Source of the DNA: Bacillota bacterium
GTDB taxonomy: Bacteria > Bacillota > Negativicutes > CTSoil-072
Direction: 5' to 3'
Assembly: GCA_017889545.1 (NCBI GenBank)
Contig: JAGFZV010000016.1
Span: 9,124-73,123, forward strand
Length of the DNA stretch: 64,000 bases
The notes under the pieces were generated by a model. It searched no databases, was not told the origin of the DNA, and saw nothing but the letters and a program-made list of their open reading frames with translations. Position numbers and translations under genes: made by a program. Numbering within the stretch: the stretch's first letter is position 1; every line of letters starts with the position of its first letter. This document shows positions 9,131 to 57,877 of the stretch, piece by piece.

Positions 9131-9230
9131 TTATCATTCCCTCCATACACAAAATTATTACATCATTTTTTTAAAAGCAATATTGAAATTATTCTTTGTA
9201 AAAAGAAATGGACTGAATTTTTTACTGTAT

Positions 9231-11905: not shown

Positions 11906-11949
11906 TACAAGCTCCTTTACAAAAAATAGTTATATCACCAAATCCAACT

Positions 11950-13335: not shown

Positions 13336-13400
13336 CGATCATTCCCCATCTTTCAATTTAATTAACTACCCGGTTTCTTCATGCAAAACAAGTTTGCGTC

Positions 13401-13420
13401 ACCACTATGATCATAGTGGT
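13401..13420. promoter_or_regulatory. perfect 20-bp palindrome ACCACTATGATCATAGTGGT in the glcD-operon promoter (candidate GntR/LutR-type operator)
   Basis: Read directly. A second partial copy aaccactatgatca lies at 13464-13477, and a ttgactatcgtcaa palindrome at 13442-13455. Confidence 0.4.
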
Positions 13421-13579
13421 TAATTGTATCTTGCGAAGTATTTGACTATCGTCAAGATCATTTAACCACTATGATCAATTTGTTTTTGGCTGATTTTATG
13501 CAATTAGATTAAATTATCGTTACTATTTGTGGTAAAATCGTCCTCTAAATATTTTCTCCATACCCTTTCAAAAATTTCA

Positions 13580-32359: not shown

Positions 32360-33703
32360 TCACAGTTGCAGCAGTTTTTCGTTAACCGCATTTTGCACTG
32401 CCGACGGCAAGGAGGCAAGCAAAACAGCAGTAATTTCCCTCAGCCGTTCTTGCGTCTTTGCTTCAAACCGCAGCGTAAACAACGGTTCCGTAACGGAAGA
32501 GCGGATCATTCCCCACCCATCGGCAAATTCAACGCGAACACCGTCAATTCGGTTCACGCTATACTGTGCAAGAGCCTGGGCCGCTGCATCCAATATTTCC
32601 TCTTTATCCGGCCCGAGGTAAGGAACGCGAATATCCGGCGTAATCAAGTAACGGGGGATATTCGCAATCAGCGAGGAAAGCGAACCATGACGGTCAATGA
32701 ATTCGCATATCTTTAAGCCGGCAAACATTCCATCGTCATACCCCAATTCCCGAAAGAAGAAATGACCGCTGATTTCACCGGCAAAAAGAGCCTTTTCCCG
32801 TAAAAACGCCGCCTTGCTGAAGGTATGTCCCGCCCTTGCCATCACAGGAGTCCCACCGGCTTTAATAATTTCTTCCGGGACGACCATCGAACATTTTGCA
32901 TCATAAATAATGGTTCCCTTAGTCTGCTCCAAATAAGAGCGGGCGAGAAGAACCAGGATATCGTCATTATTGACCGGTTGGCCGTTTTCATCCACTACCC
33001 CTACCCGGTCACCGTCACCGTCAAAGCCGATCCCCAAATCAGCACCGCAGGCTCGCACCTGTTCGCCAAGCACCAGCAAGTTTTCCGCTAAAGCCGGATT
33101 GGGCGGCCGATGTGGGAACCGGCCATCCGACTGGCAGTGAAGCTCTACAACATCGTATCCTAATCGCCTGTATAAATCCGGCGCAATGTTTGATGTTGCT
33201 CCATTTCCAGCATCCAAAACTACGCGCAAACGGCCCTTTGCCGCCTGAGCCGCAGTAGCCGCTAAATATTGTTCAATCACCGGCAGCGTCTGGACACTGC
33301 CAGCACCGACAGTACCGGCATCGGCTTCGACCAAAGCAGCGATCTCGGCAATTTCCGCTTCACTGACCGGTTCTTGCCCGAAGACAAATTTGAAGCCGTT
33401 GTATTCCGCCGGATTATGCGAAGCGGTCACCATCACGCCGCCGTCCGACTGAGTCGCTTTGATTGCATAATAAAAAACCGGCGTAGCGACTGTGCCGATA
33501 TCAATCACTTTGCAGCCTGATTCAGCCAAACCGGCTACTATACTCTGCTGCAAACGCGGAGTTGACAAGCGGATATCGCCGCCGACAACGACTTGACGGC
33601 CGGCCAGCTTGACGCCAAGCGCGCGGGCGATCTTGCGGACCATCGTAGTTGGCAATTCAGTTTCTGCTTTGCCGCGTATGTCACAGGCATGAAAAATTGT
33701 CAT
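32360..33703 (-). CDS. alpha-D-phosphohexomutase family enzyme (phosphomannomutase/phosphoglucomutase; possible phosphopentomutase role)
   Basis: Active-site phosphoserine loop TASHNPAEYNGFK and metal-binding DGDGDR motif. It sits immediately downstream of deoC. Confidence 0.65.
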   Translation of the reverse strand: MTIFHACDIRGKAETELPTTMVRKIARALGVKLAGRQVVVGGDIRLSTPRLQQSIVAGLAESGCKVIDIGTVATPVFYYAIKATQSDGGVMVTASHNPAEYNGFKFVFGQEPVSEAEIAEIAALVEADAGTVGAGSVQTLPVIEQYLAATAAQAAKGRLRVVLDAGNGATSNIAPDLYRRLGYDVVELHCQSDGRFPHRPPNPALAENLLVLGEQVRACGADLGIGFDGDGDRVGVVDENGQPVNNDDILVLLARSYLEQTKGTIIYDAKCSMVVPEEIIKAGGTPVMARAGHTFSKAAFLREKALFAGEISGHFFFRELGYDDGMFAGLKICEFIDRHGSLSSLIANIPRYLITPDIRVPYLGPDKEEILDAAAQALAQYSVNRIDGVRVEFADGWGMIRSSVTEPLFTLRFEAKTQERLREITAVLLASLPSAVQNAVNEKLLQL

Positions 33704-33734
33704 GGGAACCCTCTTTTCATTTATTCGTTGTCAC

Positions 33735-34376
33735 CTATTCTCCGACAAGCAATGGCCCAGAACTGGTTCCAATCCGGTCCGCGCCGGCCGCAATCATTTT
33801 TTCCGCCTGTTCGCGGGTGCGGATTCCGCCCGCAGCCTTGATCTTTATTTTATCGCCTACTATTTCTTTCATCAGCCGGACATCCTCTTGTGCAGCGCCG
33901 CCTGAAGCGAAACCGGTAGATGTTTTTACAAACTGCGCGCCCCCATCCATGACTGCCTGACAGGCTTGTCTTTTTTCCCCGGTAGTCAGCAGCGCCGTTT
34001 CAATAATCACTTTCACCACTGCTCCGTCTGCCGCATCAACGACCTGCTTAATTTCATCAACCACAACTTCCCATCGTCCAGATTTGGCCGCGCCGATATT
34101 CATCACCAAATCCACTTCCTTTGCTTTGCGCAAAACAGCTTCCTTGGTTTCCAATACTTTTACTTCCGGCAAATTCGCTCCCAATGGGAACCCAATCACT
34201 GTGCAGACATTCACCTTGCTGTCCGCCAAAAGATGTGCAGCCAGATCCACATAACAAGGGTTCACACATACTGCGGCAAAGCCATATTCTTCCGCTTCCT
34301 TGCATAGTCGGATAATATCCTCCACGATCGCATCCGCTTTTAAACAGGTGTGATCGATATATTTTGCCAATTCCAT
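33735..34376 (-). CDS. deoC: deoxyribose-phosphate aldolase
   Basis: 213-aa class I aldolase TIM barrel with the conserved Lys context (FVKTSTGF) and the DeoC N-terminal pattern IDHTxLK. Confidence 0.75.
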   Translation of the reverse strand: MELAKYIDHTCLKADAIVEDIIRLCKEAEEYGFAAVCVNPCYVDLAAHLLADSKVNVCTVIGFPLGANLPEVKVLETKEAVLRKAKEVDLVMNIGAAKSGRWEVVVDEIKQVVDAADGAVVKVIIETALLTTGEKRQACQAVMDGGAQFVKTSTGFASGGAAQEDVRLMKEIVGDKIKIKAAGGIRTREQAEKMIAAGADRIGTSSGPLLVGE

Positions 34377-34409
34377 TTGTTCTTTCCCCTTTCACCAGGT
34401 ACAACCCGG

Positions 34410-35270
34410 TTACCCTAATGATAAAACAGCCAGTCCGATGACCATTGAGCCCGCCGCCGCCATGCGCGACTTCAAATTTCCTTCCGACAGCAGCTTTGCT
34501 CCAAGTACCGTACCTACCAATATACTGATTTCCCGCGCTGGGGCAATATAACTGACCGGGCTGAATACTAAAGCAGTAAGAACCAATATATACGCCAAAG
34601 GACATAGAATTCCTACTCCGAAAGCAAGCTTTTTGTTCGTTTTCCATTGCTCATAGACTTTGCTCCGGTTTTGAACAGCATAGGGCGTTAACAATAAGGT
34701 TCGCCCCAAATTCGCCGACCAGTCCAGCAGCAGCGGCGGTACCAGATACAAACTCACCGCCATTTTATCCCAGACTGTATAGGATGCAATCACTATGCCG
34801 CACAAGATGGCAAATAAGGCCGGTTTGCGCGCGTCAGCTTTTTTTAACAATAAAGGATTCCCTGTCAAAAAGAATACCCCGGCAAGGATCATCAGCCCTC
34901 CAGTGATTGTCACAAGCGTCGGTTTCTCGCCCAGAAAAAGCACAGCGGTTATCATCGCCAGCAACGGTCCGGTACTGCGGGCAAGAGGATAAATGAGCGA
35001 GAGATCGCCAATCCTATACCCTCTATCCAGCAAATAAAAGTATGCACAATGCAAAACTGCCGTACCAGCCATAAAAATAAGTTGGTTCAGTCCGATAACC
35101 GGCTGTTGGTACAGCAAGATCCCTATCGCCAGAGGAAAATACACTACGGTTGAAATTGCTCCGAACAACCACCCAAAAGCAGTCCCGCCACACGCTTTTT
35201 TGGCCAGATAGTTCCAAGTAGCATGCGCAAATGCCGCAGATAACACCAGAAGCAATGCAAAATCAGACAT
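34410..35270 (-). CDS. EamA/DMT-family transporter
   Basis: 286 aa with ten predicted TM helices and two EamA repeats. Confidence 0.6.
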   Translation of the reverse strand: MSDFALLLVLSAAFAHATWNYLAKKACGGTAFGWLFGAISTVVYFPLAIGILLYQQPVIGLNQLIFMAGTAVLHCAYFYLLDRGYRIGDLSLIYPLARSTGPLLAMITAVLFLGEKPTLVTITGGLMILAGVFFLTGNPLLLKKADARKPALFAILCGIVIASYTVWDKMAVSLYLVPPLLLDWSANLGRTLLLTPYAVQNRSKVYEQWKTNKKLAFGVGILCPLAYILVLTALVFSPVSYIAPAREISILVGTVLGAKLLSEGNLKSRMAAAGSMVIGLAVLSLG

Positions 35271-35437
35271 ATGGATATCCTTTCAACAACCATTACTATG
35301 TTCTTGCTTCAAGACGATATCGTCTTCATTAATAGACTATAAGACCTCGCCCTCTAATGTCAAGAATAAACAGCAAAAAAAGACTTGTTTCAGATGAATT
35401 CAAAACTCCACCTGAAGCAAGTCTCTCTTTAGGATGA

Positions 35438-37165
35438 TCAGATATCGAACCCGCCGCCGCGGTTGCTGCCGATAGCAAGCTTACGGTATAACCGTACTAC
35501 CGGCGTAGCTTCCTTGACCGGCAACTGTTTCACAGCCTTGCGTTGCGCGAACACTTTTGCCACTTCTTCTGCCGAAGCAGGTTGTCCCTTAATCCCCACA
35601 ATATCAAGTTTACGGGCGGCAACATCCATCTTGATGAGATCACCGTCTTCAATATACGCAATCGGCCCGCCATCAGCGGCTTCCGGACTGATGTGTCCTA
35701 CTGCCGGACCCCGGGTAGCGCCCGAGAAGCGGCCATCGGTAAACAATGCCACGCTTTTCGACAATTCGTGCATATTCCATAACGCTTCCGTAGTGCGCAG
35801 CATTTCCGGCATTCCCGACCCCCGTGGTCCTTCAAAACGGATAAATACGGCGCTATGGGGTTTAATTCCGCCGCTCAACAATTCGGCAACCGCCTCTTCT
35901 TCAGAATCGAACACTCTGGCGGAACCGGTAAAATTATTGATCGCTTCGTCAACGCCCGATAATTTGATCACCGCGCCTTCCGGAGCCAAATTCCCGCTTA
36001 ATATTTTGAGATTGCCCTGAGGCTTGGTTGGCTTTTGGCGAGTGGTGATGATATCCGAAGCGGCCAGCTTGTAGTTTGTCAGGTAGCTGTTCACTTCCCG
36101 GAACCAGCCGGTTGCCTCTAGTTTCTCCAGGTTTTCGCCAAGGGTTTTTCCCGTCACCGTCATAACATCCAAATGCAAAAGGTCTTTCAATTGCCGCATG
36201 ATACCCGGGATACCGCCGGCATACCAGAAGATGTCGGTCGGCCATTCTCCTCCGGTTTTCAGACTGACCAGCACAGGAATTTCCCGATTAATCTGATCAA
36301 AATCTTTCGGCGTTATTTCAATTCCTATTTCTCGGGCAATAGCCGGCAAATGCAACAAAGCATTCGTCGAACCGCCAATGGCTGCATGAACCATCATCGC
36401 GTTGAGAAAATTCTTTTTCGTTATAAACTGACGCGGCTTCAAACCATTTTTAACATTTTCAATCACCTGCCGTCCGGCCGCCCGGGCATAGCGGGTAATA
36501 TGCGCAGTATAAGCGGGAGCCAAAGCGTTTCCGGGCAAGGACAAGCCCAGCGCTTCCGATACGGATTGCATGGTGCTGGCTGTACCAATGAACTGGCAGG
36601 CGCCGGCGCTGGGGCAGCAATTCATGGAATAATACATCAACTCATTGTCGCTGATTTCCCCCTTGGCATATTTATCACCGGCTCCATACAGGATCTCGGA
36701 AGACATAAAGCCCGGGCCGCTCAGCATCGAACCGCCGCAAACATGAACAGACGGCAGGTCGATCCGCAGCATGGTCATGAGCTGCGCAGGAACCGATTTG
36801 TCGCAGGACGCCATAAAAACCGCGCCGTCAAATGGCGAGGCCAATGCATGGATTTCATACATGTAGGACATAATCTCCCGGCTGACCAGCGAATAGTTCA
36901 TCCCGTCATGAGCCATAGCGATCCCATCACAAATATCGGTCACAGAATATAAAGCCGGTTTTCCCTGCGACTCATACACAGACAATTTCGCTTCCTCAGC
37001 CAGTTTGCCTAAATGAACACTGCCTGGGTGGCTATCTCCGTGCGCGGTGTCAATCAAAATCTGACACTTTCCAAGGTCTGCTTCATCCCATTGTGTTCCG
37101 GCCCGCAAACCATCCCCCTGGTAATTCACCTTCCGTAAGGATTGACTATGGCAATTACAACTCAT
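35438..37165 (-). CDS. IlvD/EDD-family dehydratase (acid-sugar dehydratase)
   Basis: The start is reset to MSCNCHS (RBS GAGGAGG). It has the conserved SCDKSVPA Fe-S ligand loop and IlvD-like N-terminal blocks (GIAMAHDGMNYSLVSREI). Confidence 0.7.
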   Translation of the reverse strand: MSCNCHSQSLRKVNYQGDGLRAGTQWDEADLGKCQILIDTAHGDSHPGSVHLGKLAEEAKLSVYESQGKPALYSVTDICDGIAMAHDGMNYSLVSREIMSYMYEIHALASPFDGAVFMASCDKSVPAQLMTMLRIDLPSVHVCGGSMLSGPGFMSSEILYGAGDKYAKGEISDNELMYYSMNCCPSAGACQFIGTASTMQSVSEALGLSLPGNALAPAYTAHITRYARAAGRQVIENVKNGLKPRQFITKKNFLNAMMVHAAIGGSTNALLHLPAIAREIGIEITPKDFDQINREIPVLVSLKTGGEWPTDIFWYAGGIPGIMRQLKDLLHLDVMTVTGKTLGENLEKLEATGWFREVNSYLTNYKLAASDIITTRQKPTKPQGNLKILSGNLAPEGAVIKLSGVDEAINNFTGSARVFDSEEEAVAELLSGGIKPHSAVFIRFEGPRGSGMPEMLRTTEALWNMHELSKSVALFTDGRFSGATRGPAVGHISPEAADGGPIAYIEDGDLIKMDVAARKLDIVGIKGQPASAEEVAKVFAQRKAVKQLPVKEATPVVRLYRKLAIGSNRGGGFDI

Positions 37166-37187
37166 GCAGAATACCTCCTCATAAATT

Positions 37188-38459
37188 TTATCGGATGATA
37201 GGCAACATATCCGGTGCATGGGTAAGCACGGTTACTTTCGCTGTTTTCCCCTGGTTTTCAAAGGCCGCATTCAATGCGTCCTGCACAGTGGCAAACGGAC
37301 GGAAGCCGAGTTTTTGAGCCTCTTCGGGAGCAATGCCGTCAGAAACAATATAGACCGTTTCCCGTTCCTTGACTTGGGCCCAAGCGATCGCCAAGGCGGC
37401 CGCAACTTCGTCCCCAACTTGTTTCTTCGTTACCATTTGTCGCAATTCTTCGGCTGAATAACCGGTAATATCCACGATATCGGAATGAGTCACAGCAACG
37501 CCTTCATAGCAAGGGGTTGCAAGAATAATTGTCCCGCCGGCTTTTACGGCCAGGTCCGACGGATACAGCGTCTTGTGCGCCTGCCAAAATTCAAGATCGC
37601 AAGGGTGGGAACTGGAGATAACAATATCGGCTTCTTCCGGGATCTCGACAGCATATACTTCTTTCGACGAGACAACGCCCGCTTGAAATGCTTCCTCCAA
37701 ATCACCGAAGAAAGCGCCTACCACTTCTCCGTGGCGATTTAAAACCGTATTAAAGATCGTATGCATGCCAATCTGACCGGCGATCCTGTTCAGTTCTTTA
37801 CGAACCGGATTATCTTCTATTCCCAGATAGGAACGCGGCGCCCGCACACTGAGCAAATGAGTTTCGGCTGTAGTGTGTTCGCCGGAAATACCCGGCTGAA
37901 CAATCTTGGCTCCGCCGGCAAAGCCGGGAATGTGGTGAGGAACAATGCTGCCGATGCCGATCTTAAAATCTGCTTCGTATGCTTCGCGATTAACCCAGAT
38001 ACTTGTCCCGTTTGGCGTATTGCCAAGGTCAATCAACGCTTCCGGATTTTTGAAGTCGTGATTTTTGATTTGAACCCGTTTTACTACGTCTTCGCCAAAC
38101 TTAACGGCAATTTCTTCCTCCGTCATAAAGCGGTGAGTGCCAAGCGCGATGATGATCGTGATCTGTTCGTCGGCAATTCCAGCGGCATTCATTTCATCAA
38201 GAAGAACAGGAATGATTTTTTCCGTTGGCGTTAAACGCGTATTATCATCCGCTACAATCACCACTTTTTGCGCGCCGGCTGCCAGCTCGCGCAAGGTTTT
38301 TGTGCCGATCGGCTGGTTTAACGCACGAACGACTTCCTGTTTGACATCAGACACCGGCTTCACATCTTTGGGTGAATAAGCGCCAATCAGATTTTCTTTC
38401 GGAACAGCGACTTTTATCGTTTTTTGTCCGTAGGGCAATGATAAAATGATCTCTTCCAT
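37188..38459 (-). CDS. LarA-family (DUF2088) nickel-pincer-nucleotide-dependent 2-hydroxyacid racemase/epimerase homolog
   Basis: The start is reset to MEEIILSLPYGQ (RBS GGAAGGAAG). It is a paralog of larA at 7853, and the ADDNTRLTP motif aligns to the LarA SDHTRP motif. It lies inside an acid-sugar operon rather than a lactate operon. Confidence 0.65.
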   Translation of the reverse strand: MEEIILSLPYGQKTIKVAVPKENLIGAYSPKDVKPVSDVKQEVVRALNQPIGTKTLRELAAGAQKVVIVADDNTRLTPTEKIIPVLLDEMNAAGIADEQITIIIALGTHRFMTEEEIAVKFGEDVVKRVQIKNHDFKNPEALIDLGNTPNGTSIWVNREAYEADFKIGIGSIVPHHIPGFAGGAKIVQPGISGEHTTAETHLLSVRAPRSYLGIEDNPVRKELNRIAGQIGMHTIFNTVLNRHGEVVGAFFGDLEEAFQAGVVSSKEVYAVEIPEEADIVISSSHPCDLEFWQAHKTLYPSDLAVKAGGTIILATPCYEGVAVTHSDIVDITGYSAEELRQMVTKKQVGDEVAAALAIAWAQVKERETVYIVSDGIAPEEAQKLGFRPFATVQDALNAAFENQGKTAKVTVLTHAPDMLPIIR

Positions 38460-38538
38460 GAAACAATCTTCCTTCCACATCGATATTTTCATCTGCACTG
38501 GTAACCCACAAACTTCACATCTTCTTCCGGTAATCGGT

Positions 38539-39543
38539 TTATTCACCCGCCCCTTCCGCCATGCGGGCGGCAAACTCAATCGCAGCGATCATGCTGCTGC
38601 TGTCGGCAATGCCTTTGCCGGCAATATCAAAAGCGGTTCCGTGATCGACGGAAGTGCGGATAAAGGGAAGACCAACCGTAATATTGACCCCATTATCAAA
38701 CCCAAGCAGTTTAATCGGAATGTGTCCCTGATCATGATACATGACGACAACAATATCAAATTCCTTGCGGCAAACAGCGCGAAAAAATACGGTGTCAGGC
38801 GGAATAGGACCACTCGCGTCAATACCGCTGTTCCGGGCATCCTCTACAGCCGGAGTGATTTCGTCTATTTCTTCCCGGCCAAACAAACCGTGCTCTCCGG
38901 CATGCGCATTGAAACCGGCTACAGCAATTCTAGGCTGTTTTAAACCAAGCAGCCGCAGCGTCCGATCAGCCAAACGAATGATTCTGAGGACGCGATCCCG
39001 CTTGATAAGGCCTGCAGCGTCGCGCATAGAAACATGGGTCGTGACATGAATGACTTTCAAAGTATCGCCTGCAAGCATCATGGCATAGTCTTTCGTGTTG
39101 CTGAGTTCGGCGAGTATCTCCGTGTGTCCGGGAAAATTATGCCCCCCCATATGAAGCGCTTCTTTGTTGAGAGGAGCGGTGACAATACCGGCTACCTCGT
39201 GGTTCATAGCCTGCTTTATGGCAGCCTCCAAATAGATATAAGCCGCATGTCCGGCCAGTGCGTCGACCTTTCCAAACGGCAAATCTTCAGGAATATTAGC
39301 AAAATCAAGTACATCAATCTTGCCAAACTGATACGTTCCTTCCCGTGCATCAGAAAGACTCCGCACTTCAATTGAACTCTGCAAAATAGCCGCAGCAAGG
39401 CGGATACGGCCCGCATCACCAAAAACTAACGGACGGCAGATACGGTAAACCTTTTCGTCCAAAAGCGCCTTAACGATAATTTCAGCTCCGCATCCGGCGG
39501 CATCCCCCATGGTAATCGCCAAAATTGGCCGTTGTTCCACCAT
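38539..39543 (-). CDS. pdxA2: PdxA family NAD-dependent 4-phospho-hydroxy-acid dehydrogenase (PdxA2-like, decarboxylating)
   Basis: The start is reset to MVEQRPILAITMGDAAGCGAEI (RBS GGAGGAG). The PdxA fold shows HTEIL and HVSMRDAAG blocks. Confidence 0.7.
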   Translation of the reverse strand: MVEQRPILAITMGDAAGCGAEIIVKALLDEKVYRICRPLVFGDAGRIRLAAAILQSSIEVRSLSDAREGTYQFGKIDVLDFANIPEDLPFGKVDALAGHAAYIYLEAAIKQAMNHEVAGIVTAPLNKEALHMGGHNFPGHTEILAELSNTKDYAMMLAGDTLKVIHVTTHVSMRDAAGLIKRDRVLRIIRLADRTLRLLGLKQPRIAVAGFNAHAGEHGLFGREEIDEITPAVEDARNSGIDASGPIPPDTVFFRAVCRKEFDIVVVMYHDQGHIPIKLLGFDNGVNITVGLPFIRTSVDHGTAFDIAGKGIADSSSMIAAIEFAARMAEGAGE

Positions 39544-39544
39544 C

Positions 39545-40828
39545 TCATCTCCTCCGAATCCGTTTGACAATTTTGAGCAAAACGTCAGGACTGCCAAACG
39601 CGCCCGCCTTTGTAATCACTTTTAACACAATTCCTTCCGTGGTCCTCATCTCACCCAACGGAATTCCCGGCGCCAATTCTTCAATCACTTGGATACCGGA
39701 TACGCCAAGATCCCGGCAAACCGCAGCGGCAGTATCACCACCGGTAAGAACCACGCAGGCAACTTCCTGTTGAAGAAGAATAGACGCGCCAATGCGGCCA
39801 AGGATGCCGGCCACAGCCTCACCAACCTCAACCGATGACATTCCCAGCTTGGATCCTGTGTTTTGCGTCTCCTGTACTGCATCGCTTTGATAACCGGACG
39901 CAAGAACAATATTTTTCCCATTTTCCATATAGCCGATCGCCGTTTGAATATATGGCTGAATACAGTCGTTTTGATTAGAAAAACAGTCTGCCGCCCGAAC
40001 TTCAATCAGTTCAAACCCGCCATCCAGGAGCAAAGCAATTTGTCTGTGCGTCACCAAACTGACGCTGCCGGCAACAACCAATATCGGCTTAAAATTCTGC
40101 ACCTCAGCCTGGAGATTCAACAATTGCGGCAAACAGTCAGCCAAACCTGCTGAACCGGACCAGAGAACCCGGCTGGATATGAGCGTTGCAGCCCGTGCTG
40201 CCATCTGGAATTGTTCATCCAGCCATGCATCGCAGCTGATGATCCGGCAACCTTCTGCTAAATACTGCTGAATTGCTTTTACAATAGCTTCTTCTCCTTG
40301 GCAAATTTCATCAATCCCGATATGGCCTACTTTTAATCCAGATTGTTGTCGCAATAATTTCGGCAGGACCGTTTCACATACCGGGCATTTTGGATCATGA
40401 GCGATTTCTGTCGCTGCCAGAGGAAGGCCATGCAAAAGGTGGTTCCCGCCGATCGTTGTCCGCCCATTTTTAGGAAAAGCCGGCATCACAAACGCAAAGT
40501 CATGGAGGCCTAAGTCAAGAATTGCTTTTAATTCCACACCTACGTTTCCGCGCAAGGTAGAGTCTATTTTCTTGTAACAATGAAAAAAGCCCGCATCATA
40601 AGCTTGTTTTACCGCTGCTTGCACTTTCCGGTAAGCTTCTTGTGCAGGGATGGCCCGGCTGCCTGTGTCGATAACAATCGCGGTCGCGCCGGATGAGGTT
40701 TGAAATTCCGCGCCTTCTAAAATAACCCATGTCTGCAATCCATGGCGCGCAAATTGCACCCCGGTATCATTCGCGCCAGTCAAATCATCTGCAATGACAA
40801 CGATGGATTGAGTTATTTCCTTCAACAT
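39545..40828 (-). CDS. four-carbon acid-sugar kinase (DUF1537/DUF4392; OtnK/DtnK family)
   Basis: The start is reset to MLKEITQSIVVIADDLTGANDTG (RBS AAGAGG). The N-terminal ADDLTGA nucleotide motif is characteristic of the YgbK/OtnK family. Confidence 0.65.
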   Translation of the reverse strand: MLKEITQSIVVIADDLTGANDTGVQFARHGLQTWVILEGAEFQTSSGATAIVIDTGSRAIPAQEAYRKVQAAVKQAYDAGFFHCYKKIDSTLRGNVGVELKAILDLGLHDFAFVMPAFPKNGRTTIGGNHLLHGLPLAATEIAHDPKCPVCETVLPKLLRQQSGLKVGHIGIDEICQGEEAIVKAIQQYLAEGCRIISCDAWLDEQFQMAARAATLISSRVLWSGSAGLADCLPQLLNLQAEVQNFKPILVVAGSVSLVTHRQIALLLDGGFELIEVRAADCFSNQNDCIQPYIQTAIGYMENGKNIVLASGYQSDAVQETQNTGSKLGMSSVEVGEAVAGILGRIGASILLQQEVACVVLTGGDTAAAVCRDLGVSGIQVIEELAPGIPLGEMRTTEGIVLKVITKAGAFGSPDVLLKIVKRIRRR

Positions 40829-40899
40829 GTATACCTCTTTTCCCATAAAAAGTATTCCGCTGAGTTTGACTGAAAAGAAGGACTCTATTTTAATTTTCT

Positions 40900-40918
40900 C
40901 ATTTGCCCTAAGCAAATG
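40900..40918. promoter_or_regulatory. palindrome CATTTGC-cctaa-GCAAATG about 75 bp upstream of the otnK-like operon
   Basis: Read directly; a candidate operator for the acid-sugar operon. Confidence 0.3.
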
Positions 40919-41046
40919 CAACATTCTTTTTATTATTTACATGCTAACGCGCCGCATCGTCCGGCATTATCGAATGCAGTTCCTAATTCAAAAAACACTT
41001 TTCCTCCTGACCTTAACCAATTCATCGGACAAAGTGAATACTGCGA

Positions 41047-41475
41047 TTAGTTGCTGCTTATCTTCCCTTGACAATCCGGACAAACACCATAGAAATAGAA
41101 CTGTTGCCCGGTCACCTGATAAGAAGTGGTTTGCGACACAGTATGGACAAAACCGGAGACATCAACCCCATCCATATCGTCGACGCGGCCGCAGGACATG
41201 CAGCGGATATGAGGATGATCGTCCGTATTGGCATCATACCGGAAACAATCTTCCCCGGCATTCAATACCTGTACGAGACCAATTTCCCGCAAGATGTCGA
41301 TCGTTTTGTATACAGTAGCCAAACTCATCGTTGGGTAAAGGGTTTGCAAATCATTAAAAATCATTTCCGCGCTCGGATGCGACTTGGTAGCCGCCAACAC
41401 ACTGTATATAGCCAATCGTTGTGGGGTTACTTTGAAGCCCTTGTCCCGCAGCATATTCGTAACAGACGCTTCCAT
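41047..41475 (-). CDS. Fur-family metalloregulator (Fur/PerR/Zur type)
   Basis: The start is reset to MEASVTNMLRDKG. It has a DNA-binding helix (VTPQRLAIYSVL), a HPHIRCMSCGRVDD motif and the C-terminal CPDC pair typical of the family. Confidence 0.65.
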   Translation of the reverse strand: MEASVTNMLRDKGFKVTPQRLAIYSVLAATKSHPSAEMIFNDLQTLYPTMSLATVYKTIDILREIGLVQVLNAGEDCFRYDANTDDHPHIRCMSCGRVDDMDGVDVSGFVHTVSQTTSYQVTGQQFYFYGVCPDCQGKISSN

Positions 41476-41491
41476 TTTACCAACACCTACT

Positions 41492-41518
41492 TTATAAATA
41501 ATAACTGTTATAAATAAT
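41492..41518. promoter_or_regulatory. tandem TTATAAATAAT repeats overlapping the Fur-family gene promoter (candidate Fur/PerR box)
   Basis: Two identical 11-mers lie 16 bp apart immediately upstream of the preferred start. They are AT-rich like PerR/Fur boxes. Confidence 0.25.
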
Positions 41519-41706
41519 GATTCTCGCATAATATCTATAGCTTATACAATTTTACCTCACTTTCCCCGTTTTCGCAATACTTCCCGGCTTTAAATATACA
41601 ATATCCGCAATCGACCTTCAAAAAAATCCCCGCCAGAAAGGATCGCTGCTGCCTACACAGAATATACTAGGTACAGATCACTTCCCATTCATTATCCAAA
41701 TAGGAG

Positions 41707-42555
41707 TTGACGCCTTTGTTCTTGCCAAAAGGATACGGCGAGGTCATTACCGCAATGCTCATCTGGGGCAGTGTCGGAGTTTTTGTGCGGATCGCCGATC
41801 AACCCGCTGCAACGATTGTTTTCGTTCGCGTATTTACTGCTTTTTTGGTGCTTGCCCTTTTCGCCTTGCTGCGAAAGCAACCTTTCTCACTCGCCGGCTA
41901 TGGGCCTCTTGCTGTGCTCAGCGGCATATTCATCGCAGCCAATTGGTTGTTTTTTTTCAAATCGATTCAGACAACTACCATTGGCAACGCAGTATTAACG
42001 TATTACATGGCACCCGTTCTGGCAATGCTTTGGGCTCGCCTCTTCCTCAAAGAACGCTTGGAGCGCCGAATTTTCCAAGCACTCCCGTTAGCTGGAGCAG
42101 GAATATTTCTTATGACTTCGGAATACAATTTTTCCTTATCCAGCAATGATTTTATCGGCATTCTGTTTGGCCTCGCCGGCGCGTTCTTTTATTCCTTTGT
42201 TGTTGTCATGGCCAAATACATGTCCGGTATAACACCCCGCAATCTGGTTATGGTTCAAATGGGAATATCTTCTTTGTTTTTTCTTCCTTTTGTGATCCTG
42301 AATCCACCAACTCTTACGCTGCTATCGACAAGCGCTATGCTAACGATGGGCGTCGTTCACTCGGCATTGGCCCTGAGTATTTATTTTTCAAGCTTGCAAA
42401 AAATTAAAATTCAGCATGCCAGTATTTTATCCTATATTGATCCAGTGAGCGCTTTGTTGTATGCGTATCTTATTTTTAATGAAACACCGGGATTGTATAC
42501 ACTTTTGGGCGGCGCCTGCATTTTGCTGGCCAGTTGGCTTGTAATTCGCCGCTAA
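41707..42555 (+). CDS. EamA/DMT-family transporter
   Basis: 282 aa with 10 TM segments. The start codon is uncertain (TTG at 41707 or a downstream start). Confidence 0.55.
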   Translation: MTPLFLPKGYGEVITAMLIWGSVGVFVRIADQPAATIVFVRVFTAFLVLALFALLRKQPFSLAGYGPLAVLSGIFIAANWLFFFKSIQTTTIGNAVLTYYMAPVLAMLWARLFLKERLERRIFQALPLAGAGIFLMTSEYNFSLSSNDFIGILFGLAGAFFYSFVVVMAKYMSGITPRNLVMVQMGISSLFFLPFVILNPPTLTLLSTSAMLTMGVVHSALALSIYFSSLQKIKIQHASILSYIDPVSALLYAYLIFNETPGLYTLLGGACILLASWLVIRR

Positions 42556-51203: not shown

Positions 51204-52508
51204 TCACGCTTGTCGCGCCAGTTTTTGAAAGGCGATACTGCTGGCAGCAATTGTTGCCTCGATGTCTGCATCCGTATGCGCAATCGACATAAACCCGGCT
51301 TCAAATTGTGAAGGAGCCAAGTAAATACCCTGTTCCAGCATAGAGTGAAAATACCGGTTGAAAGCGCCCACATCCGAACACTTGGCGGTTTCGTAATCAA
51401 CCACCTCTTGATCGGAAAAGAATGTACAGAACATCGTCCCAATATGATGAAACTGCAAATGAAATCCGTACTTTTCCGCCTCATTCCGGATGCCATTGCA
51501 CATCCGCTGGGTCAGAACTGTCATCCGCGTATACAGGTCCGGATCATCTTCCAGAATTTTCAATGTAGTAATCCCTGCTACCATCGCCAGCGGGTTGCCG
51601 CTTAACGTACCCGCCTGATAGACCGGACCTGCCGGCGAAATCAGTTCCATGATTTCCCTGCGGCCGCCATAAGCGCCAACCGGCAAACCACCGCCAATCA
51701 CCTTGCCCAAGCAGGTCAAATCCGGTTTAATTCCGTAAACCGACTGTGCACCACCAAACGCAACTCGGAAACCCGACATCACCTCATCAAAAATCAGCAG
51801 AGCGCCATGGGCAGCAGTAATTTTGCGCACTTGGGCCAAGTAACCCTGTTTTGGCAAAACCAATCCCATGTTTCCTGGAACGGGTTCAATAATGACTGCG
51901 GCAATATCCTCGCCTTGCCGGGCAAAAACTTCCGCCAAGGTTTCCGCGTCATTATAAGGGACCGTAATTGTTCCGGCAGCAACATTGCCAGGCACGCCAG
52001 GGCTATCCGGCGTTCCCAGCGTCAAGGCGCCGGATCCGGCCTTGACCAGTAAACTGTCATGGTGGCCATGGTAACAGCCGGCAAATTTAATAATCTTATT
52101 TCTTCCGGTATAGGCCCGCGCCAAGCGAAGAACGCTCATTGTCGCTTCCGTACCGGAGTTAACCATTCTGACCATTTCCATAGAGGGGACAATCTGCGTA
52201 ATTTTCTTTGCCAACTCTGTTTCCAGCAATGTCGGCGCTCCATAGCTCGTTCCCCGGGTAGCCGCCTGCTGCAGCGCCTGGATGACGTCGGGGTGGGCAT
52301 GACCTAAAATCATCGGCCCCCAAGAGCCAACATAATCGATGTATGTATTGCCATCAATGTCTGTTAATCGACTGCCTGAACCGCTGGCAATGAACGGCGG
52401 CGTCCCGCCTACGCCTCGAAAAGACCGAACGGGACTGTTAACCCCACCGGGAATATATTGTTTTGCTTCGGCAAACGCCGCTGCCGACTTCTCCAAATGA
52501 ATACTCAT
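51204..52508 (-). CDS. hemL: glutamate-1-semialdehyde 2,1-aminomutase
   Basis: 434-aa PLP aminotransferase class III with the HemL N-terminus ([23 protein letters not shown]). Confidence 0.85.
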
Positions 52509-52532
52509 ATTTTGCCTCCTCTTGTCAAATTG

Positions 52533-53510
52533 TCAAGATTCTTGCAACCAACGGGCAGCATCCAAGGCATGATACGTAATGATCATCTCGGCGCCCGCAC
52601 GTTTCATTCCCAGCAGTGTCTCCAGAACAATTTGCCGCTCATCCACCCATCCATTCGCCGCTGCCGCTTTCACCATAGCATATTCGCCACTTACGTTATA
52701 AACAGCAACCGGAAGATCAAAGCTGTCTCGAACCTGCCGCACAACATCCAAATAAGCCAACGCCGGTTTTACCATGATAATGTCGGCGCCCTCTTCAATA
52801 TCCAACGCCACTTCCCGCAGCGCTTCCCGGACATTGGCCGGATCCATCTGATACGTCTTTCGATCGCCAAATTGAGGCGCAGAGTCAGCGGCTTCCCGGA
52901 AAGGTCCATAGTAAGCCGATGCATATTTGGCTGCATACGACATAATCGCAACTTGTTCATAGCCCCGACTGTCAAGGGCCTCCCGGATCGCACGAACCCG
53001 CCCATCCATCATATCGGATGGAGCGACCATATCCGCACCGGCTTCGGCATGACTCAATGCAACCCGCCCCAGCAAACTTAATGTGAGATCATTGTCAACA
53101 TTCTGCCCGCGAAGCAACCCGCAATGGCCATGGCTGGTATATTGACACAGACAAACATCGGTTATTACAGTCAACTCCGGAATTTCCTTCTTAATGAGGC
53201 GAACCGCCTTCTGCACAGGGCTGGCCGGATCCCAGGCACTGGACCCCTGATCATCTTTGTATTCCGGCAAACCAAAAACCAATACAGCCGGAATGCCAAG
53301 TCCATAAGCTTCCCGTGCCACTTCCAAAGCCATGTCAACCGATAAATGACAAGAGCCCGGCAAAGAAGGAATTTCGCACTGCACATTTTCTCCCGGTACA
53401 ACAAACAATGGATAAATAAGATCCGCTGCATTGAGCTCGGTCTCCCTTACCATATTCCTGATCGTCGGAGACCTCCTTAGCCGTCTCGGTCGAATAAATG
53501 GTCTGCTCAT
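52533..53510 (-). CDS. hemB: porphobilinogen synthase (delta-aminolevulinate dehydratase)
   Basis: 325-aa HemB signature ([18 protein letters not shown]...; active-site Lys region). Confidence 0.85.
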
Positions 53511-55036
53511 TTTTCCGCCTCCCCTGCAACCAGCAATACAATTGCATCAACTAATCCTTGTATTGTATATTCACTGGCGATACAATCCGTCGCAATTCCG
53601 TGTTCCTGACAAGTTAACGCAGTGATCGGCCCAATGCAGGCCGTTTTCGCATGCGAAATTAATTCTGTCCCCCGTTCTCCCAGTATACTGAGTAAATTGG
53701 TGACAGTTGAGGAACTGGTAAAAGTAATGAAATCAATCGCGCCAGACGCCAGTTCTTTCACCAAATAACCGCCATCCGCATCGCCGATTTCGGTACGGTA
53801 GGCTTCCACTACATCCACGACGGCGCCAATTTCCGCCAACTGCTTGGGCAGCACATCACGGGCCACTGCCGCGCGTGCAATGAGCACCTTCGCGCCAGGC
53901 TGCAACCTGTCTTGCAAGGCGGCAACAATGCCTTCAGCCCGGAATTCCAAGGGAACAACGTCTGCTTTGATCCCGTTCTCACGCAAACGCTCTGCGGTCT
54001 GCGAGCCAATCGCTGCAATCTGGATACCGGCTAAGGCCCGGCTGTCAAGGCCGGCCGCCCATAACCGCCGATAAAAATAATCCACACCATTCGCACTGGT
54101 AAAAATCAGCCATTGATAGCTAAATAAATTGTCAATCGCTGCATCAAGAGCGGCGAAGCTTTCCGGCGGAACAATTTTAATTGCCGGCGCCTCAAAACAT
54201 TCCGCACCGAGAGCTTCCAATTTATCCGTCAGCAGGCTCGCCTGCTCCCGGGCACGGGTAACCAATATTCTTTTACCGAATAACGGACGCTTGTCAAACC
54301 AAGCCAACTGTTCCCGCAGGTTCACTACATCACCGACAATAAAAATAGCCGGCGGCTTGATTCCCTGCCGGGCTACCTCTTGTGCTGCCCGTCCTATCGT
54401 AGTAACCAACGTTTGCTGCTCCGGCTTCGTACCCCAGCGAATAACCGCTGCAGGCGTAGTTTCCGGCCGCCCATTGGCAATTAAACTAGCCGTAATATGC
54501 GGCAAATTTTCAACGCCCATTAAAAACACCAGGGTATCGACACTGGTCGCAAGTTTATCCCACCGAATGGAAGACTCGGATTTATCGGGATCCTCGTGGC
54601 CTGTGATCACTGCAAAAGAAGCTGCAACTCCCCGATGCGTAACCGGAATACCCGCATAAGCCGGAACGGAAATCGCAGAGGTGATACCGGGCACAATCTC
54701 AAAAAGTATTCCCGCTTCCTTTAGTTTTATCGCTTCTTCACCGCCGCGCCCAAACACAAAGGGATCGCCGCCTTTCAGGCGAACGACCGTTTTTCCCGCA
54801 AGTGCTTTATCGACAAGCAATTGATTGATGTCTTCCTGTCGCATCGTATGATCGCTGGAAGCCTTGCCTACATAGACCAATTCCGCGTCAGAACGCGCAT
54901 CACGCAATAAACGGCTGTCTGCCAAACGATCGTAAACAATCGTATCCGCTTCGCGGATACAGTCTACAGCCTTCAAACTGATCAGCCGGTAATCTCCCGG
55001 CCCGGCTCCCACTAAATATACTTTACCGTTCTTCAC
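53507..55036 (-). CDS. bifunctional uroporphyrinogen-III C-methyltransferase / uroporphyrinogen-III synthase (CobA-HemD fusion)
   Basis: N-terminal SUMT motif ([18 protein letters not shown]) and a C-terminal HemD domain. 509 aa. Confidence 0.8.
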
Positions 55037-55991
55037 TATGATTGCCTCCTGTCACAGTAAAATCCTCAAGCGCTGCTAATATCTCCCGGCCCCCGGCCGC
55101 CAGCATTCGCTTCGCCAACTCATCACCAAGCGCCTCACCGTCTGCAGCATCCCCACATACTTGATCCTTAATCATCGTTTGCCCGTCAACAGAAGCAATC
55201 AATGCCGATAAACTCAACCGCTGCCCGGAAATTTCCCCATATACTCCGACCGGAACTTGGCAGCCCCCCTCTATCACACGCAAAAAAGCCCGCTCGGCAA
55301 ATACTGCTGCACGGGTTTCCTGATCATTCAAAAAAGACAGCAATTCCAAGACTTCAACATCATCTTGCCGGGCTTCAATCGCCAAAGCTCCCTGCCCAAC
55401 AGCCGGCAAACAAATAGAATGCGGCAACACCTGGGAAATCTCCTGTTCCCAGTCCAAACGTTTTAATCCCGCAACAGCAAGAATAATAGCGTCCAGTTCC
55501 TGTGTTCTCACCTTATTCAGCCTGGTATCCAGGTTTCCCCGCAAATCGCTGATCAGCAAATCCGGACGATAGTGTAACAACTGTGCACGACGACGCAAAC
55601 TAGAAGTTCCAACCCGGGCGCCACGCGGTAATTCATCCAGCGTTGAAAAACGGGGGCTGATCAAAGCATCTCCCGGATCCGCGCGTCGCGTAACAGCTGC
55701 AAGGGTCAATCCCGGCGGCAATTCCGTCGGCATATCTTTCAAGCTATGAACAGCCAGATCGATCTCGCCCTGCAGCATGGCAGTCTCCAGCTCTTTGGTG
55801 AATAATCCTTTTCCGCCAATTTTTGCCAGAGGCACATCCAAGATGCGATCGCCGGTCGTGACGATCCGGACAATGGTCACTTCAACGGATGGATAGCGCG
55901 TCCGTATTGACTCAGCAATATGGTTCGCCTGCCACAGCGCCAGCTTACTTCCGCGCGTACCGATAACAAGATTTTTTTTCAATGGTGACAT
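55023..55991 (-). CDS. hemC: hydroxymethylbilane synthase (porphobilinogen deaminase)
   Basis: VIGTRGSKLALWQANHI N-terminal signature. Its start appears to overlap the hemA 3' end. Confidence 0.85.
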   Translation of the reverse strand: MSPLKKNLVIGTRGSKLALWQANHIAESIRTRYPSVEVTIVRIVTTGDRILDVPLAKIGGKGLFTKELETAMLQGEIDLAVHSLKDMPTELPPGLTLAAVTRRADPGDALISPRFSTLDELPRGARVGTSSLRRRAQLLHYRPDLLISDLRGNLDTRLNKVRTQELDAIILAVAGLKRLDWEQEISQVLPHSICLPAVGQGALAIEARQDDVEVLELLSFLNDQETRAAVFAERAFLRVIEGGCQVPVGVYGEISGQRLSLSALIASVDGQTMIKDQVCGDAADGEALGDELAKRMLAAGGREILAALEDFTVTGGNHSEER

Positions 55992-57261: not shown

Positions 57262-57877
57262 CGTTAATCTTTGCCTCCGCCTCTTGCATTCTGCCCTGCC
57301 GCAGCAGAGCCAATATTTCACTATCCAATGTTTCCCGCCAAAAACAAACCCTCTCATCGGCGGAATGGATACGATTTTTCACTTTTTGCCGCGCCTTTGC
57401 GATCAATTCCAAGTACTGGCCATACTCCGGGCCATATTCTGCCGCTAATTTCTCCCGCAAACGCCGGGATAACGCGGGACTATGACCGCCTGTCGAGACC
57501 GTCAACAAAAGGTCGCCCCGGGCCACTTGCGCCGGCACCAAAAAATCGCCCTTCTCAGGCGCATCAACCACATTCACTAAAATACGTTGTGCCTGAGCTT
57601 CTTCGCTTACAAGACGATTAATTTCCGAACGATCAGCAGCACAGATAACCAATAAATGGCCTGTTGTATCTCCCGTTTGATACGGCCTGTCGACATGAAT
57701 AATTTGTCTGTCAGCAGCCAACTTTGCAAGTCCATCCGTCAAGCGCGGACTGATGACCGTTACAACAGCCCCGGCAAGCAGCAAAGACCGTACTTTGCGC
57801 TCTGCCACTGCGCCGCCGCCAATAACCAGGCAAGGCTTCCCTTCAATCAGCAGGTTCACCGGATAACAGTTCACCAT
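57230..57877 (-). CDS. sirC: precorrin-2 dehydrogenase / sirohydrochlorin ferrochelatase (SirC/Met8-like)
   Basis: 215 aa with the N-terminal NAD motif (LVIGGGAVAERK). It is the first gene of the heme operon. Confidence 0.7.
   Translation of the reverse strand: MVNCYPVNLLIEGKPCLVIGGGAVAERKVRSLLLAGAVVTVISPRLTDGLAKLAADRQIIHVDRPYQTGDTTGHLLVICAADRSEINRLVSEEAQAQRILVNVVDAPEKGDFLVPAQVARGDLLLTVSTGGHSPALSRRLREKLAAEYGPEYGQYLELIAKARQKVKNRIHSADERVCFWRETLDSEILALLRQGRMQEAEAKINDAIDCIGIKP

Follow-up and report, generated by a model that had tools for sequence, protein, structure and literature searches.

We analysed a stretch of 64,000 nucleotides, hereafter the window, from a Bacillota bacterium of the Negativicutes (CTSoil-072; assembly GCA_017889545.1, contig JAGFZV010000016.1, positions 9,124 to 73,123 of the forward strand). 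On its minus strand, positions 35438-40828 carry genes for a DUF1537-family kinase, a PdxA2-type dehydrogenase, a LarA homolog (LarAH) and an IlvD/EDD-family dehydratase, in this order. The combination of kinase, PdxA2 and LarAH is a conserved functional unit whose core recurs in five bacterial groups, and it is therefore probably the mark of a variant of tetronate breakdown that has not been described. LarAH probably epimerises a small 2,3-dihydroxy acid sugar, which would then be used by the kinase/PdxA2 pair, by the dehydratase, or by both. With more reserve, we propose that the four genes are a catabolic operon for tetronates, most likely D-erythronate and D-threonate, that includes a nickel-dependent C2 epimerase.

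All four protein families, as well as the kinase/PdxA2 module, are already known. What is new is that an unassigned LarA subfamily, IlvD-type dehydratases and PanB paralogs have been built into that module, and that this insertion is conserved. The preliminary description of this region held that the gene combination is not a characterised pathway, and the searchable literature likewise yielded no description of it. A full-text search returned no paper that ties LarA or nickel-pincer enzymes to PdxA, DUF1537, threonate or erythronate, save for 4-deoxy substrates. Two surveys of the LarA superfamily (PMC7583248, PMC11770544) make no mention of a PdxA2/DUF1537 context, or of tetronate substrates beyond the 4-deoxy compounds.

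Open reading frames and Pfam domains bear out the four co-directional genes and the families first named for them. The kinase gene (39545-40828) encodes 427 amino acids from the ATG at 40828. Its longest open reading frame begins at 40924, and the start had been placed at 40918; the true start is most likely 40828, because an AAGAGG Shine-Dalgarno sequence precedes this ATG and homologs are 414-430 amino acids long. The pdxA2 gene (38539-39543, 334 amino acids) begins with the ATG at 39543, a single nucleotide after the kinase stop codon (TGA, 39547-39545), and its Shine-Dalgarno sequence, GGAGGAG, lies within the kinase gene. A 79-nucleotide spacer with the Shine-Dalgarno sequence GGAAGGAAG leads to the LarAH gene (37188-38459), whose start at 38459 yields 423 amino acids, the same as database protein P0001. 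The LarAH stop codon ends at 37188, and the dehydratase gene (35438-37165, 575 amino acids) starts with the ATG at 37165, after 22 nucleotides that include the Shine-Dalgarno sequence GAGGAGG. The start/stop overlaps originally described at 39543/39545 and 37165/37188 are therefore spacers of 1 and 22 nucleotides.

Directly after the dehydratase stop codon, an intrinsic-terminator-like hairpin with a U-run (35374-35431, minus strand) closes the operon. Its predicted folding energy is -28.4 kcal/mol (z = -5.49), and none of 200 shuffled sequences folds as well. The next gene, eamA (34410-35270, minus strand), encodes an EamA-family permease (Pfam EamA, 62 bits) and starts 167 nucleotides downstream of the dehydratase on the same strand. 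A sigma-70 promoter-like site, TTGACA-16-TATAGT (35336-35363, minus strand), lies between the dehydratase and eamA. It agrees with 11 of 12 consensus positions and was the top match of a 10-kb scan; overall, promoter-like sites are no more numerous in the region than shuffled sequences would lead one to expect, and the case for this site rests on match quality and intergenic position. Because the hairpin and the near-consensus promoter lie between the dehydratase and eamA, the transcription unit most likely consists of the four genes, with eamA transcribed separately. We therefore rejected EamA as an operon member, and the close downstream position that had been noted for it is the part of that observation that holds. 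The permease is a candidate, unproven transporter for the pathway.

The kinase has both domains of the DUF1537 family (Pfam SBD_N, 218 bits; NBD_C, 106 bits). Its best NCBIfam model is D-threonate kinase (NF047819; 321 bits, cut-off 450), followed by 3-oxo-tetronate kinase (OtnK, 190 bits) and 3-oxo-isoapionate kinase (OiaK, 60 bits), all scores being below cut-off. Kinases of related clusters rank the same curated models in the same order. The protein also matches five DUF1537 crystal structures in the PDB, among them 4xfm (177 bits), whose identity we presume, and it is 59% identical to kinases of Sporomusa kinase-pdxA2-larAH clusters.

The dehydrogenase matches Pfam PdxA with 370 bits and is nearer to structures of the PdxA2 type (4jqp, 365 bits; Salmonella PdxA2 2hi1, 325; 6e85, 313) than to E. 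coli PdxA (197). The PDB entry 6e85 is a D-threonate 4-phosphate dehydrogenase. The protein passes the general pdxA model TIGR00557 (370 bits, cut-off 290), which has no power to separate PdxA from PdxA2, and it does not reach the cut-off of the D-threonate 4-phosphate dehydrogenase model NF002891 (369 bits, cut-off 583). By sequence, this is a predicted NAD-dependent, decarboxylating 4-phospho-hydroxyacid dehydrogenase of the PdxA2 type, as first suggested, and not of the biosynthetic PdxA type.

LarAH has the two domains of its superfamily (Pfam Lar_N, 219 bits; LarA_C, 39.5 bits) and the ADDNTR motif. Full-length PDB matches include the malate racemase Mar2 (212 bits), a broad-spectrum LarA, and Lactobacillus plantarum LarA (177 bits). 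The best NCBIfam model is malate racemase LarAH6 (356 bits, cut-off 500). LarAH stays below every cut-off of the named LarA models (scores against cut-offs: 356/500, 310/540, 307/462, 299/460, 102/740 and 87/500), the subfamilies compared being lactate racemase, malate racemase LarAH5/6, LarAH10, LarAH14-16 and the group 18 hexonate epimerase. LarAH is predicted to be a 2-hydroxyacid epimerase that depends on the nickel-pincer nucleotide and belongs to an unnamed subfamily. In an alignment to L. plantarum LarA, its catalytic histidines H109 and H175 correspond to H108 and H174, its cofactor-binding residues R75, K185 and H201 to R75, K184 and H200, and its carboxylate-binding residues Q293 and K296 to Q295 and K298. 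The full set of catalytic histidine and lysine residues, which the preliminary description had singled out for checking, is thus present, and the catalytic, cofactor-binding and carboxylate-binding residues are invariant across 63 orthologs.

An AlphaFold model of LarAH has a predicted TM-score (pTM) of 0.76, with low confidence in the active-site loops 174-216 and 286-302. All 19 significant Foldseek matches in the PDB are LarA-family proteins (TM-scores 0.62-0.81). LarAH therefore shares with the characterised members of the superfamily the two-domain fold and the catalytic and binding residues, while its identity to them is 30-36%. These members include LarA, Mar2, the D-gluconate 2-epimerase GntE and broad-spectrum LarA homologs (PMC7583248, PMC11770544), and about half of the superfamily has no predicted function (PMC11770544). 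The superfamily offers two precedents for the role proposed here: GntE belongs to a sugar-acid operon, and LarA homologs epimerise 4-deoxy-threonate and 4-deoxy-erythronate at C2, all four 4-deoxy-tetronates being accepted (PMC11770544). According to the same paper, one LarA homolog racemises 2,3-dihydroxyisovalerate.

At the positions used to assess specificity in LarA enzymes (PMC7583248, PMC11770544), LarAH has His-Ile after the second catalytic histidine, His before the catalytic lysine, and a helix 14 that begins Asp-Glu-Val; the lysine that malate racemases have at the start of this helix is missing. The LarA-based and Mar2-based alignments differ on the residue matching LarA W358, and we favour the Mar2-based register because helix 14 of the model starts at residue 351. 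The specificity residues appear consistent with a substrate that has a neutral, hydroxylated side chain, and they are tentative because of the low-confidence active-site loops. A malate or tartrate racemase, which the best NCBIfam and PDB matches might suggest, was considered and rejected: the score is below cut-off, the helix-14 lysine is missing, and dicarboxylates would leave the kinase and PdxA2 without a role.

The window also contains a canonical lactate racemase LarA (7853-9130, minus strand), which scores 662 bits with the NCBIfam model Ni_dep_LarA (NF033504, cut-off 460) and to which LarAH is only 31% identical. The presence of this enzyme indicates, indirectly, that the organism makes the nickel-pincer cofactor. 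The gene is part of a lactate-utilisation cluster (6889-15241, minus strand) that also encodes a GntR/FCD regulator, a CCG/Fe-S subunit, two GlcD-like FAD oxidases and an L-lactate permease (13580-15241).

Gene-neighbourhood comparison supports a shared function. LarAH orthologs fall into more than 120 database clusters at an identity of at least 70%, and we mapped 80 genome loci, whose orthologs are 61-83% identical. At least 3 kb of upstream sequence was available for 65 related loci; a kinase or pdxA2 gene lies on the same strand in 42 of them, and both genes are present in 30. In 45 of 54 well-flanked loci, the kinase/PdxA2 genes or a dehydratase gene adjoin LarAH. The gene order is nearly always kinase-pdxA2-larAH, and this order is found in Negativicutes (Sporomusa, Pelosinus, Anaerospora), Clostridia/Peptococcaceae, Acidobacteriota, Syntrophales and Spirochaetota. 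A typical full cluster consists of a sigma-54/PrpR-type or RpiR regulator, kinase, PdxA2, LarAH, and a TRAP DctPQM system or GntP permease; IclR regulators are also seen. This assembly of regulator, core and transporter is the signature of an inducible operon for catabolism of an organic acid. The order in the window, kinase-pdxA2-larAH-ilvD-like-eamA, is common only to one other locus (L001), whose eamA is 83% identical; the remaining related loci have TRAP, GntP or MFS transporters in place of EamA.

LarAH orthologs share operons with three unrelated types of dehydratase: the type found in the window, canonical IlvD, and UxaA/SAF. In eight Syntrophales/delta loci, a canonical-scoring IlvD gene lies 5 nucleotides upstream of LarAH and a PanB gene precedes it, and in five Negativicutes loci a split UxaA/SAF dehydratase accompanies LarAH. 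From these partners, the substrate of the epimerase is expected to be a 2,3-dihydroxy acid. Related clusters add further enzymes. Two loci (L044 and L080) contain, at about 1-12200, ten co-directional genes, for a class III aminotransferase, an IclR regulator, formate-tetrahydrofolate ligase, an ECF S-component, a class I/II aminotransferase, an IlvD-type dehydratase, kinase, PdxA2, LarAH and a PanB-like protein, and this cluster ties the module to C1-tetrahydrofolate and amino-group metabolism. DmpG/DmpF-like or DHDPS-like aldolases are encoded in four other clusters (L002, L003, L006 and L009). By tblastn, the window has no gene for a PanB-like protein, a group-22 isomerase, a TRAP binding protein, formate-tetrahydrofolate ligase, or a DmpG-like or DHDPS-like protein.

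As a separate observation, LarAH10-family racemases are encoded beside or near the LarAH ortholog or IlvD-type genes in L002 (6538-7827), L003 (9871-11148), L059 (3429-4706) and L083 (506-1813), which places two nickel-pincer enzymes within a single cluster. The copies in L002, L059 and L083 score 638-668 bits with NF052525 (cut-off 540); the L003 copy, 31% identical to the LarAH of the window, is known from tblastn alone.

The dehydratase of the window has both domains of its family (Pfam ILVD_EDD_N, 354 bits; ILV_EDD_C, 196 bits). An alignment with canonical IlvD proteins shows that it keeps the CDG, CDK, GACQF..GTAS and TDGRFSG motifs. In the IlvD/EDD family, these motifs supply the Fe-S cysteines, the CDK motif and the catalytic serine motif. 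The protein scores below both IlvD equivalog cut-offs (513 against 618 and 524 against 644), whereas canonical IlvD proteins of related loci score 679-754, and it is also below the cut-offs for arabinonate (322/882), xylonate (323/808) and 6-phosphogluconate (277/708) dehydratases. By these sequence comparisons, we classify it as a true member of the IlvD/EDD family that is not a canonical IlvD. With the sugar-acid dehydratases of the family (dihydroxy-acid, arabinonate, xylonate and 6-phosphogluconate) it shares both domains and the Cys, Asp-Lys and Ser motifs; unlike them, it belongs to a separate ortholog group, which has a 16-residue insertion peculiar to the group and AGAC in place of CGSC. 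There are IlvD/EDD-family and related dehydratases that act on threonates, and enzymes converting L- or D-threonate to 2-oxo-4-hydroxybutanoate are known (PMC10079672).

Orthologs of this dehydratase elsewhere (58-78% identity) adjoin genes for DUF1537 kinases, PdxA, PanB-like proteins and the group-22 nickel-pincer isomerase. In Sporomusa acidovorans, the order is sigma-54 regulator, DUF1537 kinase, dehydratase ortholog, PanB-like gene. In S. termitida (L086), it is kinase, TRAP, a 414-amino-acid protein, dehydratase ortholog, PanB-like gene; in Desulfofundulus (L084), PanB-like gene, TRAP, GlcDEF-like genes, a 414-amino-acid protein, dehydratase ortholog, kinase, PdxA; and in Clostridiales PH28 (L088), TRAP, GlcDEF-like genes, a 416-amino-acid protein, dehydratase ortholog. 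The proteins of about 414 amino acids directly before the dehydratase (L084, 6717-7961; L086, 6714-7958; L088, 6707-7957) appear to form one class. That of L086 has no Pfam match above threshold and scores 467 bits with NF052515, the model for nickel-pincer isomerase group 22 (cut-off 400); those of L084 and L088, which have sub-threshold Lar_N matches only, are taken to be group 22 from their position. The L084 protein resembles the LarAH of the window only in a PH..G..K segment (BLASTP E = 0.027). A survey links group 22 to the COGs for IlvD/EDD, TRAP and sugar kinases (PMC7583248 Table S1).

Group 22 is thus a separate and very distant branch of the superfamily that, like LarAH, precedes this type of dehydratase as a recurring pair. 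The pairing of a nickel-pincer isomerase with such a dehydratase, which it would feed, is a recurrent design, reached with two very distant superfamily members. This recurrence argues that the dehydratase of the window is a functional partner and not a passenger. We regard it as accessory to the LarAH module, and a shared pathway is plausible. The preliminary description had suggested the dehydratase as an alternative or upstream step; as a conserved member of the module it fails, since L001 is the only other locus with it beside LarAH, and the suggestion survives through the links of its orthologs to DUF1537 kinases, PdxA and nickel-pincer isomerases. The DUF1537 kinases of the S. acidovorans (L081, 6738-7982) and S. 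termitida (L086, 2480-3745) clusters, neither of which adjoins PdxA2, form a separate subgroup: they share 68% identity with one another and roughly 30% with the PdxA2-linked kinases, and they may have a different substrate.

Evidence on the identity of the substrate comes from enzyme families and from transporters. LarA enzymes act on a 2-hydroxy acid, the dehydratase requires a 2,3-dihydroxy acid, PdxA2 a 3-hydroxyl, and the kinase a terminal hydroxyl; no molecule smaller than a tetronate (2,3,4-trihydroxybutanoate) satisfies all of these requirements. A profile of 14 LarAH-adjacent TRAP binding proteins has as its top PDB matches 4PDD (352 bits), the identity of which is presumed here, 4P9K/4PAK (345), 4PDH (341) and 4NQ8 (322). 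A single LarAH-adjacent binding-protein sequence gives the same result. The supplement of PMC11668362 gives erythronate or pantoate as the bound ligand of 4P9K, 4PDH and 4NQ8, many of the ligands in such structures having been co-purified. Because the LarAH-adjacent binding proteins are nearest to erythronate- or pantoate-bound structures, a tetronate is favoured independently of the enzymes.

D-erythronate (2R,3R) and D-threonate (2S,3R) differ at C2, as do L-threonate (2R,3S) and L-erythronate (2S,3S), and these are the pairs that a C2 epimerase connects. PdxA2-type enzymes reportedly use the D series. The example originally given for C2 epimerisation, L-threonate to D-erythronate, is not possible for a C2 epimerase because a change from 2R,3S to 2R,3R occurs at C3; the proposal of a tetronic acid as such is favoured by the binding proteins. 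The 4-deoxy-tetronate reactions of LarA homologs follow the same C2 logic (PMC11770544).

In the pathway that we infer, LarAH with its nickel-pincer nucleotide would invert C2 of a tetronate, or of its 4-phosphate, and so interconvert D-erythronate and D-threonate, the direction of epimerisation and the choice between free acid and phosphate ester being part of the conjecture. Epimerisation would let stereospecific downstream enzymes use both epimers. The DUF1537 kinase would phosphorylate the 4-hydroxyl, and the PdxA2-type enzyme would oxidise C3 and decarboxylate the product to dihydroxyacetone phosphate and CO2, so that one epimer would be consumed by kinase and PdxA2. The IlvD/EDD dehydratase may be a second outlet that converts the 2R tetronate to 2-oxo-4-hydroxybutanoate.

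The PanB-like gene, formate-tetrahydrofolate ligase and DmpG/DmpF-like or DHDPS-like aldolases of related clusters suggest that this product is then cleaved to release a C1 unit. In those genomes, and not in the window, a PanB-like hydroxymethyltransferase would probably split 2-oxo-4-hydroxybutanoate into pyruvate and methylene-tetrahydrofolate; alternatively, DmpG/DHDPS-type aldolases would split it. A promiscuous 2-oxoacid/formaldehyde aldolase activity of PanB is known (PMC7610986). The broadest form of the proposal is that the LarAH group is a tetronate 2-epimerase in a widespread anaerobic pathway with two outlets, one through kinase and PdxA2 to dihydroxyacetone phosphate, as already known, and the other, hitherto undescribed, through an IlvD-type dehydratase and a PanB paralog to pyruvate and a C1 unit on tetrahydrofolate, with which acetogens and syntrophs could supply the Wood-Ljungdahl pathway. 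At this breadth we regard the proposal as doubtful.

Several observations weigh against the assignment to tetronate catabolism, or against the unity of the four genes. None of the enzymes attains the curated cut-off of a characterised equivalog (kinase 321/450, dehydrogenase 369/583), so the substrate assignments are extrapolations. The described D-erythronate and D-threonate pathways need no epimerase. Among the 80 loci, only L001 has a close ortholog of the window's dehydratase beside LarAH, and the IlvD and PanB proteins beside LarAH in Syntrophales score as canonical biosynthetic enzymes. Nine LarAH loci, mostly of Acidobacteriota, have no partner gene (kinase, PdxA2 or dehydratase) within 8 kb. 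Four Spirochaete loci (L066, L071, L072 and L077) have the order sigma-54 regulator-kinase-LarAH-TRAP without PdxA2, and four loci of Selenomonadales type (L022, L027, L031 and L033) have PdxA2-LarAH without a kinase, beside a divergent metallophosphoesterase. The window has no TRAP system, and with the TRAP profile the 2-keto-3-deoxygluconate binder 7BBR scores nearly as high (314 bits) as the erythronate and pantoate binders. In S. termitida, the binding protein of the dehydratase cluster is nearest to 4PC9, a different structure from the erythronate binders, and given this match the dehydratase family may act on larger aldonates. By tblastn, genes for the fate of 2-oxo-4-hydroxybutanoate are not in the window. 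Finally, no larB, larC or larE was found among the approximately 45 open reading frames scanned in the window or in 10 kb beyond its low-coordinate edge.

The partnerless loci are eight from Acidobacteriota (L005, L008, L012, L013, L017, L021, L023 and L024) and one from Nitrospiraceae (L029). Their LarAH orthologs are 71-78% identical to the Negativicutes protein, and so high an identity between phyla points to a recent horizontal transfer or to very strong constraint.

The same enzyme logic could instead serve another polyhydroxy acid, such as the branched five-carbon D-apionate or a larger aldonate, with the PdxA-family enzyme and the DUF1537 kinase working as they do in apionate pathways and the IlvD and PanB types acting on C3-branched analogues of their biosynthetic substrates. 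We consider this unlikely. DUF1537 kinases are also found in apionate catabolism, pathways for which reportedly include such a kinase (Carter et al. 2018), and the OiaK model does give a weak match to the kinase of the window; however, its 60 bits compare with 321 for the D-threonate kinase model. IlvD and PanB natively take C3-branched acids, and L002 has two tandem PanB-like genes beside IlvD and LarAH. None of the mapped loci showed a partner of the RuBisCO-like or class II aldolase type. The 4PC9-like binding protein of the S. termitida dehydratase cluster would fit a larger substrate, as would the ties of group 22 to IlvD/EDD, TRAP and sugar-kinase COGs (PMC7583248 Table S1), but the binding proteins adjacent to LarAH itself match erythronate/pantoate binders best. 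In addition, natural D-apionate has one stereocentre, and a racemase would have no obvious role in its breakdown.

Another explanation assigns the kinase and the PdxA homolog to vitamin B6 synthesis instead of the breakdown of a carbon source: they would salvage 4-hydroxy-L-threonine or 4-phospho-erythronate, with LarAH and the dehydratase as ancillary enzymes. The dehydrogenase passes TIGR00557 (370 against 290), and PMC9997740 (citing Thiaville 2016) states that PdxA2 can run the PdxA reaction and that DUF1537 kinases can recycle toxic intermediates to precursors of pyridoxal phosphate; PMC9997740 also describes PdxA2 as a catabolic enzyme, not one of pyridoxal phosphate synthesis. Two aminotransferases and an ECF S-component accompany the module in L044 and L080, and the GlcD/CCG-type dehydrogenases of L084 and L088 recall the PdxB replacement proposed in Desulfovibrio. 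However, LarA enzymes take 2-hydroxy and not 2-amino acids (PMC7583248, PMC11770544), the salvage route has no place for a dehydratase, and high-capacity TRAP/GntP transporters with sigma-54, RpiR or IclR regulators typify catabolic operons. The 4-hydroxythreonine recycling system (Thiaville et al. 2016, as cited in PMC9997740) resembles the window in that genes of the same kinase and PdxA2 families adjoin, but it needs no epimerase, dehydratase or high-capacity acid transporter, and the context in the window looks catabolic. On this evidence, a role in vitamin B6 salvage is improbable.

We give an equally low standing to the idea that LarAH racemises pantoate or 2,3-dihydroxyisovalerate in concert with IlvD and PanB, with the kinase and PdxA2 as mere neighbours. 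Pantoate is also a ligand of the nearest TRAP binding proteins with solved structures (4NQ8, 4PAK), the IlvD and PanB proteins beside LarAH in Syntrophales score as canonical, several loci have LarAH10-family paralogs beside the LarAH ortholog, and a LarA homolog racemises 2,3-dihydroxyisovalerate (PMC11770544). This idea leaves the commonest partners, the kinase and PdxA2 (42 of 65 loci), unexplained; pantoate lacks the 3-hydroxyl on which PdxA2 or a dehydratase would act, the dehydratase of the window is not a canonical IlvD, and tblastn finds no PanB in the window. Chance adjacency of four genes without a common pathway, to which the restriction of the dehydratase to two LarAH loci and the nine loci without any partner gene might point, can be set aside almost entirely given the spacers of 1, 79 and 22 nucleotides with Shine-Dalgarno sites, the single terminator after the fourth gene, the kinase-pdxA2-larAH order kept in five bacterial groups, and the independent links of dehydratase orthologs to DUF1537 kinase, PdxA and nickel-pincer isomerases. 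Each of these four explanations accounts for fewer of the recurrent partners than does the tetronate model.

Returning to that model, the closest known systems include the pathways for D-threonate and D-erythronate, which reportedly combine a DUF1537 kinase, DtnK or DenK, with PdxA2 (Zhang et al. 2016, as cited in PMC9997740 and PMC12994016). As in those pathways, the kinase and pdxA2 genes of the window adjoin and are translationally coupled, the nearest curated models are those of D-threonate kinase and D-threonate 4-phosphate dehydrogenase, and the expected products are dihydroxyacetone phosphate and CO2. Unlike those pathways, the cluster in the window adds a nickel-pincer epimerase and an IlvD/EDD dehydratase, its kinase and dehydrogenase are below the equivalog cut-offs, and the hosts of the kinase-PdxA2-LarAH cluster are strict anaerobes (Negativicutes, Syntrophales, Spirochaetes and others).

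The sequence around the operon was also inspected. The leader upstream of the kinase (40829-41046, minus strand, 218 nucleotides) has no Rfam match at E <= 1 in a search of window positions 34000-42000, and at lengths of 218-222 nucleotides it folds no better than shuffled sequences (z = +0.33). A riboswitch or other structured leader was rejected on these grounds. No regulator of the pathway adjoins the operon. The gene upstream of the leader (41047-41529, minus strand) encodes a Fur-family protein that scores as a PerR equivalog (NF052545, 200 bits, cut-off 180); it is unrelated to the pathway, and a nickel-responsive Nur regulator was thus rejected. Two other loci, L001 (86% identity) and L058 (42%), likewise have a Fur-family gene in front of the kinase.

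Behind eamA on the same strand, positions 32360-34376 encode DeoC (TIGR00126, 282 bits) and a PGM/PMM-family phosphomutase. These genes and eamA constitute the next unit, and deoC and the phosphomutase gene may be a deoxyribose-phosphate unit that shares the eamA promoter; we found no link of the deoC and phosphomutase genes to the four-gene operon. Farther away, positions 51204-57357 (minus strand) hold a tetrapyrrole biosynthesis block, with genes for glutamyl-tRNA reductase, porphobilinogen deaminase, a fused uroporphyrinogen methylase/synthase, ALA dehydratase and a class III aminotransferase that is probably HemL, which is a housekeeping context.

Erythronate and threonate, the latter arising from ascorbate breakdown, are common in soils, plants and animal fluids, and bacterial routes for their use have been worked out mainly in aerobic Proteobacteria. 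If the tetronate model is true, the LarA superfamily would gain a physiological role and a new class of substrates. Anaerobes would serve more than one stereoisomer with a single stereospecific kinase/dehydrogenase pair, and their growth on tetronates would depend on nickel. The linked genes of IlvD-like and PanB-like type point to the cleavage of a sugar-acid product in a reaction coupled to tetrahydrofolate, which would be new biochemistry with relevance to engineered 2,4-dihydroxybutyrate and formaldehyde pathways. The labels "lactate racemase", "PdxA", "dihydroxy-acid dehydratase" and "PanB" now carried by the LarAH, PdxA2, IlvD-like and PanB-like genes are probably wrong in hundreds of genomes.

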